Assembly (NCBI RefSeq): GCF_050920415.1
Contig: NZ_CP169309.1
Strand: one strand, 5' to 3'
From: Escherichia coli
GTDB taxonomy: Bacteria > Pseudomonadota > Gammaproteobacteria > Enterobacterales > Enterobacteriaceae
DNA: 64,000 bases
This document shows positions 33,955-34,075 of this stretch, piece by piece (the stretch's first letter is position 1; every line of letters starts with the position of its first letter). Position numbers and translations under genes: made by a program. The notes beneath the pieces are model-generated. The model did no database searches, was not told the origin of the DNA, and saw only the letters and a program-made list of their open reading frames with translations.

Positions 33955-34075
33955 TCTTTCAGGCCGCAGCGGCGTTAGCTTCACGCCCTCACCCCAGTCA
34001 CTTACTTATGTAAGCTCCTGGGGATTCTGGCGCTTGCTACCTTGCTGCACCCAGAAATCCATAGGGTATGTGAAG
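33955..34075. repeat. ERIC / IRU intergenic repeat (inverse orientation to the 12.6 kb copy)
   Basis: cacgccctcaccccagtcacttacttatgtaagctcctggggattc is the reverse complement of the 12598-12640 core. Confidence 0.75.

Follow-up and report, generated by a model that had tools for sequence, protein, structure and literature searches.

What is the repeat that lies between aceF and lpd in Escherichia coli, where does it sit relative to the signals that drive lpd, and does it matter for the expression of this gene? We addressed these questions in a 64,000-nucleotide stretch of contig NZ_CP169309.1 (the window, to which all positions refer unless K-12 is named), in which the pdhR-aceEF-lpd operon occupies the minus strand. 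A 1-kb segment around the repeat is covered for at least 80% in 5423 of 5426 complete E. coli genomes and is 99.7% identical to K-12 MG1655, where the genes annotated beneath it are aceF and lpdA. The reading that we favour, with a probability of about 0.7, is that the repeat is an ERIC element that persists as a largely neutral MITE relic in the loop of a leader hairpin, and that 3' exonucleases stall at its core hairpin. The ERIC family has been known since 1990–91 and the lpd copy is part of the K-12 reference genome. Described below are three minor additions to what was already known: a dimorphism between strains, an RNA end mapped by Term-seq and a parallel case in Pectobacterium. Full-text searches for literature linking ERIC with lpd returned nothing relevant within their coverage, outside which the original ERIC catalogues lie.

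The initial annotation had taken the repeat for a second ERIC copy, inverted relative to one near 12.6 kb, and this identification holds. The 46-nt string that it quoted corresponds to positions 33982–34027, and the first 40 nt of this string, read on the minus strand, are the exact reverse complement of 12599–12638. This 40-nt core (33988–34027, minus strand) holds the ERIC1R and ERIC2 primer sites and has two matches in the window, where 100 dinucleotide-preserving shuffles gave an expectation of 0.00. When the two copies are aligned pairwise, the ungapped similarity reaches 82 nt at 83% identity (12557–12638 against 33988–34069), and a gapped alignment spans the whole element. Copy 2 ends in terminal inverted repeats, CATACCC...GGGTATG, which are complementary at 7/7 positions and which set its limits at 33944–34070 (minus strand, 127 bp, in the same sense as lpd transcription). 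The interval first given for it, 33955–34075, was thus correct in location and not in its limits, as it missed 11 bp on the lpd-proximal side and included 5 bp too many at the other end. Copy 1 (12556–12682, plus strand) is also 127 bp long and begins 4 nt past the panC stop codon. The two copies are inverted relative to each other in the window, and the orientation of the lpd copy relative to its transcript is the same as that of copy 1 relative to panC.

Both copies can be placed within the wider ERIC family. The standard ERIC-PCR primers (ATGTAAGCTCCTGGGGATTCAC and AAGTAAGTGACTGGGGTGAGCG; PMC5938721) match copy 1 at 22/22 and 22/22 positions and copy 2 at 20/22 and 21/22. When metagenome contigs were scanned with the degenerate core GAGCTTACNNAAGTAAGTGAC, 120 stretches matched, and 108 unique full-length ERIC copies were obtained from them. 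Their consensus reads (T)ATACCCTAAATAATTCGAGTTGCAGGAAGGCGGCAAG.GAG.GAATCCCCAGGAGCTTAC..AAGTAAGTGACTGGGGTGAGCGA..GCAGCCAACGCACATGCAGCTTGAAG.ATGACGGGTATA, with the family ends TATACCC...GGGTATA, and the lpd ERIC aligns with the 108 copies end to end at a median identity of 68.5%. The lpd copy carries C...G as its outer bases where TA is usual, its flanks being TTCA before CATACCC and ACC after GGGTATG, and the ends CATAC...GTATG are shared by at least one other ERIC copy. ERICs, also named IRU or RU-1, have been described as 127-bp MITEs with inverted repeats, a TA target duplication and highly base-paired transcripts (PMC2229807, PMC3184786, PMC10969869), in a literature that includes Sharples and Lloyd (1990), Hulton, Higgins and Sharp (1991) and Wilson and Sharp (2006) (cited in PMC2229807, PMC10969869). 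They are dispersed, with two copies in the window, a median of five megablast places per E. coli genome, and further copies in the K-12 ahpC-ahpF spacer, at pgk-fbaA and near metE. No Rfam family reaches its gathering threshold in either copy, and Rfam holds no entry for the ERIC family. Below the threshold, copy 2 resembles only CssrA (26.1 bits against a gathering threshold of 93, over the 3' half) and copy 1 resembles V_AS5 (49.8 against 96), Ysr49 and isrH; these sRNA models seem to embed ERIC-like sequence. The feature at 33944–34070 is a genuine full-length ERIC, an element type that was already known. The alternative that the lpd element belongs to no repeat family, and resembles the 12.6-kb copy by a brief chance match or as a generic palindrome, has practically no probability left: no observation speaks for it, and it is contradicted by the exact 40-nt match where none is expected, by the 82 nt at 83%, by the full-length alignment with 108 unique copies, and by the presence of the locus in K-12 and in 3432 genomes.

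Next, we focused on the position of the element relative to the signals of lpd. The lpd gene (33913–32489, minus strand) encodes a 474-aa product that is identical to the RefSeq MULTISPECIES Lpd, and the RefSeq lpdA start is the same in every genome inspected. The start codon (33913–33911) and the Shine-Dalgarno sequence GAGG (33922–33919) together occupy 33911–33922 on the minus strand. The stop codon of aceF occupies 34240–34238 (minus strand), and the aceF-lpd spacer at 33914–34237 (about 325 bp) corresponds to K-12 127588–127911. Within it, the intrinsic terminator of aceF (34205–34235, minus strand) consists of a GC-rich hairpin, with its stem at 34211–34230, followed by TTTTTT. A promoter scan placed Plpd at 34115–34143 (minus strand), with the -35 box TTTAAA at 34143–34138 and the -10 box TAAAAT at 34120–34115; in the consensus scan these boxes are correctly spaced for a transcription start at 34108, and the position agrees with the published start. 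In K-12, genome-wide profiling of transcription starts gave an lpd start at 127717, which is 34108 on the minus strand of the window, and a 195-nt 5' UTR (PMC3415461 supplement 2), and the upstream sequence listed there, ending in TTGTTAACAATTTTGTAAAATACCGACG, agrees with the window. The same distance of 195 nt between the promoter and the lpd ATG is given in PMC2759082, citing Spencer and Guest (1985), Quail et al. (1994) and Cunningham et al. (1998).

These positions confirm part of what had been claimed for the setting of the repeat and correct another part. The ERIC does lie between the aceF terminator (stem 34211–34230) and the lpd coding sequence (start 33913), and lpd is indeed served by a promoter of its own as well as by read-through from aceEF (PMC2759082). 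It had also been proposed that the repeat lies between the terminator and the lpd promoter; with the transcription start at 34108 and the ERIC at 34070–33944, the element is instead downstream of the promoter. On the transcribed strand, the order is aceF stop codon, terminator, Plpd, ERIC, ribosome-binding site and lpd. Counted from the transcription start, the ERIC runs from +39 to +165. It makes up two-thirds of the lpd 5' UTR and ends 30 nt before the ATG and ~20 nt upstream of the Shine-Dalgarno sequence. Transcripts that start at Plpd and those that read through from pdhR-aceEF into lpd therefore both include it.

The element is not a fixed component of this leader. Among 5425 matching E. 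coli genomes, 3432 cover at least 80% of a 351-bp spacer query and thus carry the ERIC+ allele, whereas the remaining matches fall into two pieces that span 234 bp. For a 111-nt query that has the short, ERIC- allele at its centre, 1992 genomes give a coverage of at least 80%. Since the two alleles together account for 5424 of 5426 complete genomes (63% vs 37%), the E. coli population consists of two alleles at this locus. The intergenic region measures 326 bp in ERIC+ and 207 bp in ERIC- strains, a difference of 119 nt. Examples of the ERIC+ allele are K-12 and its derivatives, an E. coli B derivative, O26:H11 11368 and O111:NM, while the 207-bp spacer is found in O157:H7, ABU 83972, an O6:K2:H1 strain, CFT073, 042, IAI39 and SMS-3-5. 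By established phylogroup assignment, all those checked from A and B1 are ERIC+ and all those checked from B2, D, E and F are ERIC-, a pattern that covers these six groups.

What the element displaced can be read from the ERIC- allele, in which a 31-nt loop, GATAATGGGCGTCATAAAAAAAACGTCAGAC, lies between CCCGGTG and CCGCCGGAG. Alignable loops of similar length were found in Salmonella enterica (spacer of 200 bp), in two Enterobacter species (about 200 bp) and in a Klebsiella-like contig with a 206-bp spacer, whose leader promoter matches that of K. pneumoniae MGH78578 (PMC3415461). Photorhabdus, Providencia, Arsenophonus and Dickeya likewise have alignable loops and short spacers of about 203–214 bp. 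This survey covered contigs of 80 of 587 confirmed relatives, with E. fergusonii, Citrobacter and most Pectobacterium species outside it. In K. pneumoniae, transcription starts at the homologous position and yields a 76-nt UTR (PMC3415461), which equals 195 minus 119 nt and thereby supports the position of the ERIC within the 5' UTR. Judged from these alignments, the ERIC-free loop is ancestral and the ERIC+ state derived, the element having lodged in the former apical loop of a conserved lpd leader stem-loop.

The exchange between the two alleles was a replacement rather than a simple insertion. Between ERIC- and ERIC+ strains, the 31-nt loop is exchanged for 148 nt that consist of GTGGTTAGGGTATTACTTCA, the ERIC and a single A, and the right half of the ancestral loop (CGTCAGAC) is absent from the ERIC+ allele. 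Comparison with the ERIC-free allele reveals no TA target duplication at the lpd ERIC. The left flank that is specific to the ERIC+ allele, GGUUAGGGUAUUACUUCA (34071–34088, minus strand), has no clear counterpart in ERIC- genomes. It holds TAGGGTAT, the reverse complement of ERIC nt 2–9, which may have been left behind by the end of a different ERIC.

The leader stem survived this replacement. In the MFE folds of both the ERIC+ and the ERIC- leader, a basal stem is formed by CCGGUGGU (34089–34096, minus strand) as its 5' half and ACCGCCGG (33936–33943, minus strand), directly 3' of the ERIC, as its 3' half. The stem CCGGUGG/CCGCCGG, or a wobble variant of it, appears in the MFE folds of most species compared and is kept in Salmonella, the Klebsiella-like contig, Enterobacter, Photorhabdus, Providencia and Dickeya. 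One Enterobacterales MAG has a variant changed on both sides, UUAU/AUAA (UCCGGUUAU/AUAACCGGA); as the single both-sided change, seen in per-sequence folds, it makes for thin covariation support. RNAalifold did not recover the leader stem from 13 ERIC-free leaders, in which the loop aligns poorly. In the ERIC+ leader, the basal stem is retained and the long imperfect ERIC hairpin is stacked inside it. In the lpd sense, the ERIC RNA folds at -66.3 kcal/mol (z = -7.7), with 0 of 200 shuffles as stable, and the RNA of copy 1 (12557–12682) folds at -53.6 kcal/mol (z = -8.2). The lpd ERIC forms 44 base pairs, 28 of which equal the family consensus and six of which are changed on both sides with pairing kept. 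Across 105 other copies, most of these pair columns are 80–100% paired, with several pair types.

The ribosome-binding site is predicted to be hardly affected by the hairpin. The unpaired probability of the Shine-Dalgarno sequence is predicted to be 0.76 with and 0.80 without the ERIC on transcripts from Plpd, and 0.69 with and 0.76 without it on read-through transcripts. According to these fold models, the element is structurally insulated from the ribosome-binding site, whose predicted accessibility is the same in both alleles. We infer that lpd translation is largely indifferent to the insertion, which persists as a lineage marker. The right inverted repeat of the ERIC also contains an ATG (33946–33944), and the list of open reading frames includes the longer in-frame ORF that begins there (32489–33946, 485 aa), so that the repeat could supply the start of an 11-codon N-terminal extension of Lpd. 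We reject this ATG as the lpd start and regard the extension as hardly credible, as the codon is base-paired in the terminal stem and is not preceded by a Shine-Dalgarno sequence, the RefSeq annotations all begin with MSTEIK, and ERIC- strains and other genera, which do not have this ATG, have an identical Lpd N-terminus.

Published Term-seq tables place an RNA 3' end within the lpd ERIC at K-12 position 127845 (plus strand), with about 1400 and 2100 reads and a non-significant Rho score of 0.74 (PMC7815308). The sequence given there reads CTGGGGTGAGGGCGTGAA up to the end and GCTAACGCCG after it, and occurrence counts suggest that the end is present in all three Term-seq conditions. In the window, it corresponds to 33980 (minus strand), which is ERIC nt 91 and 67 nt upstream of the ATG. 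The core hairpin is closed by an inner GCGCC/GGCGU stem, and the end lies 3 nt beyond this stem. Two further ERICs show ends in comparable places: at pgk-fbaA, an end at 3071314 with about 24,000 reads lies a few nt past the core hairpin, and near metE, where the element is transcribed in the opposite orientation, an end at 4012988 also lies past it (PMC7815308). That such ends occur at the base of the core hairpin whichever way the element is transcribed agrees better with a structural barrier to 3'-to-5' exonucleases than with termination, which is directional.

A terminator would nevertheless account for a stable hairpin followed by an RNA end, and the intrinsic-terminator score of 6.2 at 127845 exceeds the value of at least 3 that is called suggestive. 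According to this explanation, the ERIC is an attenuator or terminator between aceF and lpd, and most transcripts end at 33980. We consider this very unlikely. The bases that follow the 3' end, GCUAACGCCG, contain no U-tract, and the minus strand has no T-run after either the core hairpin or the whole ERIC. A terminator scan found nothing within the element, and reported 34211–34230 (that of aceF), 34094–34109 on the plus strand and 34309–34295 on the minus strand. The Term-seq counts are low (about 1400–2100), DirectRNA coverage is greater downstream than upstream (174 vs 330), and abundant lpd enzyme is made from this very leader in K-12. The similar 3' ends at oppositely oriented ERICs also speak against termination. 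Alternatively, cleavage by an endonuclease or pausing of transcription, and not the stalling of exonucleases, could have produced the end at 127845. Processing of the lpd ERIC by RNase III has no support: a global screen in E. coli reported no site in it, and did report sites in the pdhR-aceE and ahpC-ahpF spacers (PMC5371410). The ahpC-ahpF site (639695) is ~60 nt beyond the ERIC of that spacer, in another hairpin. This null result counts against RNase III only and not against other nucleases.

In the exonuclease-block reading, a cut or pause downstream would first expose the RNA on the 3' side of the ERIC. The entry cut might plausibly, if speculatively, fall in the single-stranded, AU-rich sequence GAGAUAAAUAUAUAG that separates the ERIC from the Shine-Dalgarno sequence. 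The GC-rich core hairpin would then block 3'-to-5' exonucleases, probably the chief consequence of the element at the molecular level, leaving a leader fragment of ~129 nt that ends at 33980. The element may modestly change the decay of lpd mRNA or the uncoupling of lpd from aceEF.

Conservation of the element could point to more than a relic. The type strain of E. albertii carries the ERIC+ allele, with an ERIC that is identical at 127/127 positions and an upstream spacer that is identical at 164/165. Over the whole intergenic region, the window and E. albertii are 99.4–100% identical, whereas the flanking genes show 95.1% (aceF) and 95.4% (lpd) identity. Taken from sequence comparison with this single E. 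albertii genome, the identity could reflect purifying selection, and hence function. It could also have arisen through recent recombination across this tract, or because the region as a whole evolves slowly. The tract of low divergence runs from ~34390 to 33680, about 300 bp into both flanking genes, and ERIC- and ERIC+ E. coli are likewise unusually similar across it. With the E. albertii sequence as query, we found no cryptic-clade Escherichia with the locus in the genome collection searched.

A second comparison comes from Pectobacterium betavasculorum, two assemblies of which carry an ERIC in the same orientation and in the same leader loop. There, both halves of the ancestral loop are kept around the insert, as GGGCGTTATTAAAAA before and CGTCACAGACCCGCCGG after it, and Dickeya chrysanthemi has no insert in its lpd leader loop. 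In an alignment of 111 sequences (108 unique copies from metagenomes and three references), the lpd ERICs of E. coli and Pectobacterium are each other's best match, at 78.7% identity. However, unrelated ERIC loci reach 76.4%, against a median of 68.5%, and one unrelated copy has the same subfamily features. We therefore favour two independent insertions into what may be a favourable site. A bolder proposal, which we regard as unlikely, is that the lpd leader loop is a recurrent landing site for ERICs, that the ERIC+ allele moved between lineages by recombination, and that this allele alters post-transcriptional control of lpd, for example through a stable leader RNA of ~129 nt or through E3 stoichiometry. 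If this were true, strains of A and B1 would regulate a central metabolic enzyme differently from those of B2, D, E and F.

These observations bear most directly on the possibility that the ERIC is a selected cis-regulatory RNA of lpd, in which mRNA stability or processing is set by the hairpin itself or by a nuclease site that its 3' arm contains, so that E3 is tuned relative to E1/E2 and 2-oxoglutarate dehydrogenase in strains with the element. Such a role would suit the perfect identity with E. albertii against 95% in the neighbouring coding DNA, the reproducible RNA 3' end within the element, the preservation of the hairpin through compensatory changes, and the second ERIC in the same leader loop of P. 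betavasculorum. It also has a precedent in Yersinia, where ERICs whose 3' inverted repeat carries an RNase E site change the stability of co-transcribed mRNAs (PMC2229807, PMC10969869). Yet the Yersinia elements with this effect adjoin an upstream stop codon, so that ribosomes open the hairpin, and in the lpd leader the stop codon of aceF is ~170 nt away with a terminator between. The element is moreover absent from 1992 of 5426 E. coli genomes and from all other sampled genera except for one Pectobacterium species, the predicted accessibility of the ribosome-binding site is unchanged by it, and low divergence extends ~300 bp into both genes, as expected from a recombination tract or general constraint. 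On balance, we find a selected role doubtful, and it stays in play mainly because of the perfect E. albertii conservation.

With the largely neutral relic as the preferred reading, the useful gains are the correction of position, which puts the repeat in the 5' UTR and not upstream of the promoter, and a clean presence/absence dimorphism. The latter matters for the engineering or modelling of lpd and pyruvate dehydrogenase, and for transferring leaders between K-12 or B and O157 or ExPEC strains, as these leaders differ by 119 nt. If the ERIC does affect the fate of lpd mRNA, the two alleles would form a natural experiment in which a MITE rewired a subunit shared by three central enzyme complexes.

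How does the lpd ERIC compare with known systems? Neisseria Correia elements are also MITEs that occupy transcribed spacers and form a long double-stranded hairpin (PMC10969869); unlike the lpd ERIC, in which no RNase III site is reported, their hairpins are cut by this enzyme at the inverted repeats. The Yersinia ERICs that modulate decay abut an upstream stop codon, where ribosomes expose the RNase E site that the 3' inverted repeat carries (De Gregorio et al. 2005, via PMC2229807, PMC3184786 and PMC10969869). The lpd copy resembles these in being co-transcribed with its flanking genes, in forming an RNA hairpin and in having RNA ends in the 3' half of the element, but it lies in a 5' leader, ~170 nt past the aceF stop codon, and its 3' end at ERIC nt 91 is outside the terminal repeat. 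With the ERIC/IRU family at large, it shares the length of 127 bp, the core with the ERIC1R and ERIC2 sites, the terminal inverted repeats and the long imperfect hairpin, as well as an extragenic yet transcribed location, dispersed copies and strain-variable presence. It departs from the family in its outer C...G instead of T...A, in having no visible TA duplication, and in that strains without the ERIC show, in place of a clean empty site, a 31-nt loop of unrelated sequence. REP/BIME elements form stable stem-loops in E. coli operons that block 3' exonucleases (Higgins et al. 1982, cited in PMC3184786). ERIC belongs to a different sequence family from REP/BIME and is longer (127 bp vs about 35 bp), and its barrier is deduced from Term-seq positions. 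Like REP/BIME, however, it is a transcribed repeat palindrome, and in three ERIC copies, covering both orientations, RNA 3' ends lie just past the core hairpin.

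In the ERIC+ allele of the lpd leader, 31 nt of the ancestral loop are replaced by the repeat and its flank, not merely interrupted. The left flank, which is specific to this allele, includes TAGGGTAT; this is exactly the reverse complement of ERIC nucleotides 2-9 (ATACCCTA), and the two segments lie on the minus strand at 34078-34085 and 34062-34069, respectively. Together they form an alternative small hairpin, and the flanking TAGGGTAT may be a remnant of a second ERIC end. The right inverted repeat of the lpd ERIC carries an ATG (33944-33946, minus strand) that is in frame with lpd and opens an ORF of 485 amino acids (32489..33946) in the longest-ORF listing. 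We rejected this ATG as the real lpd start, the 485-aa ORF being an artefact of the longest-ORF rule. A weak additional TSS has been assigned to lpd at K-12 127494, inside the aceF coding region and 418 nt upstream of the lpd ATG, with 4 reads versus 8 for the main lpd TSS (PMC3415461, supplement 2).

When the aceF-lpd spacer of Escherichia albertii NBRC 107761 (L003, 1603-1924) was compared with that of the window (33914-34239), the spacer, including the ERIC, was 99.4-100% identical, and the genes flanking it were ~95% identical. The resulting tract of low divergence spans ~700 bp (window ~34390-33680) and could result from recombination or from constraint. An ERIC also occupies the same lpd leader loop, in the same orientation, in Pectobacterium betavasculorum, a member of another family of Enterobacterales than Escherichia (L007, 1839-1962; also the comparison sequences L212 and L213), where both halves of the ancestral loop are intact around it. 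The lpd leader loop of Dickeya chrysanthemi (L214) is without an ERIC.

A tssD (Hcp) gene lies between aroP and pdhR in SMS-3-5 (L086, 3594-7059) and CFT073 (L216, 2217-5671), accompanied by several bacteriocin-immunity genes; IAI39 and 042 have neither tssD nor bacteriocin-immunity genes in this interval. The RefSeq annotation of CFT073 marks aceF as frameshifted.

Other repeats were also found in the window. Within aceF, three tandem direct repeats of ~300 nt each (35232-36143), the second and third 79% and 67% identical to the first, encode the E2p subunit's three lipoyl domains. At 18647-18677, 21849-21892 and 50216-50367 there are short GC-rich repeats with the pattern GCCGGATGCGGCG...CTTATCCGGCCTAC, which look like REP/BIME elements.

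ERIC copy 1 (12556-12682, plus strand) begins 4 nt past the panC stop codon. As it matches the Rfam families V_AS5 (49.8 bits against a gathering score of 96), Ysr49 and isrH, all below threshold, this suggests that ERIC-like repeats underlie several Rfam 'sRNA' families. Elsewhere in K-12, the ERIC in the ahpC-ahpF spacer (L091, K-12 639509-639752) is oriented against transcription, and a published RNase III site (639695) falls outside it, ~60 nt further downstream, within a distinct GCAAGC...GCTTGC hairpin. Term-seq detected a strong 3' end at the pgk-fbaA ERIC (3071314, minus strand, ~24,000 reads) and another at an oppositely oriented ERIC near metE (4012988, plus strand) (PMC7815308, supplement 1). 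Each lies a few nucleotides beyond the ERIC core hairpin, and such hairpins seem to be general sites of RNA 3' ends.
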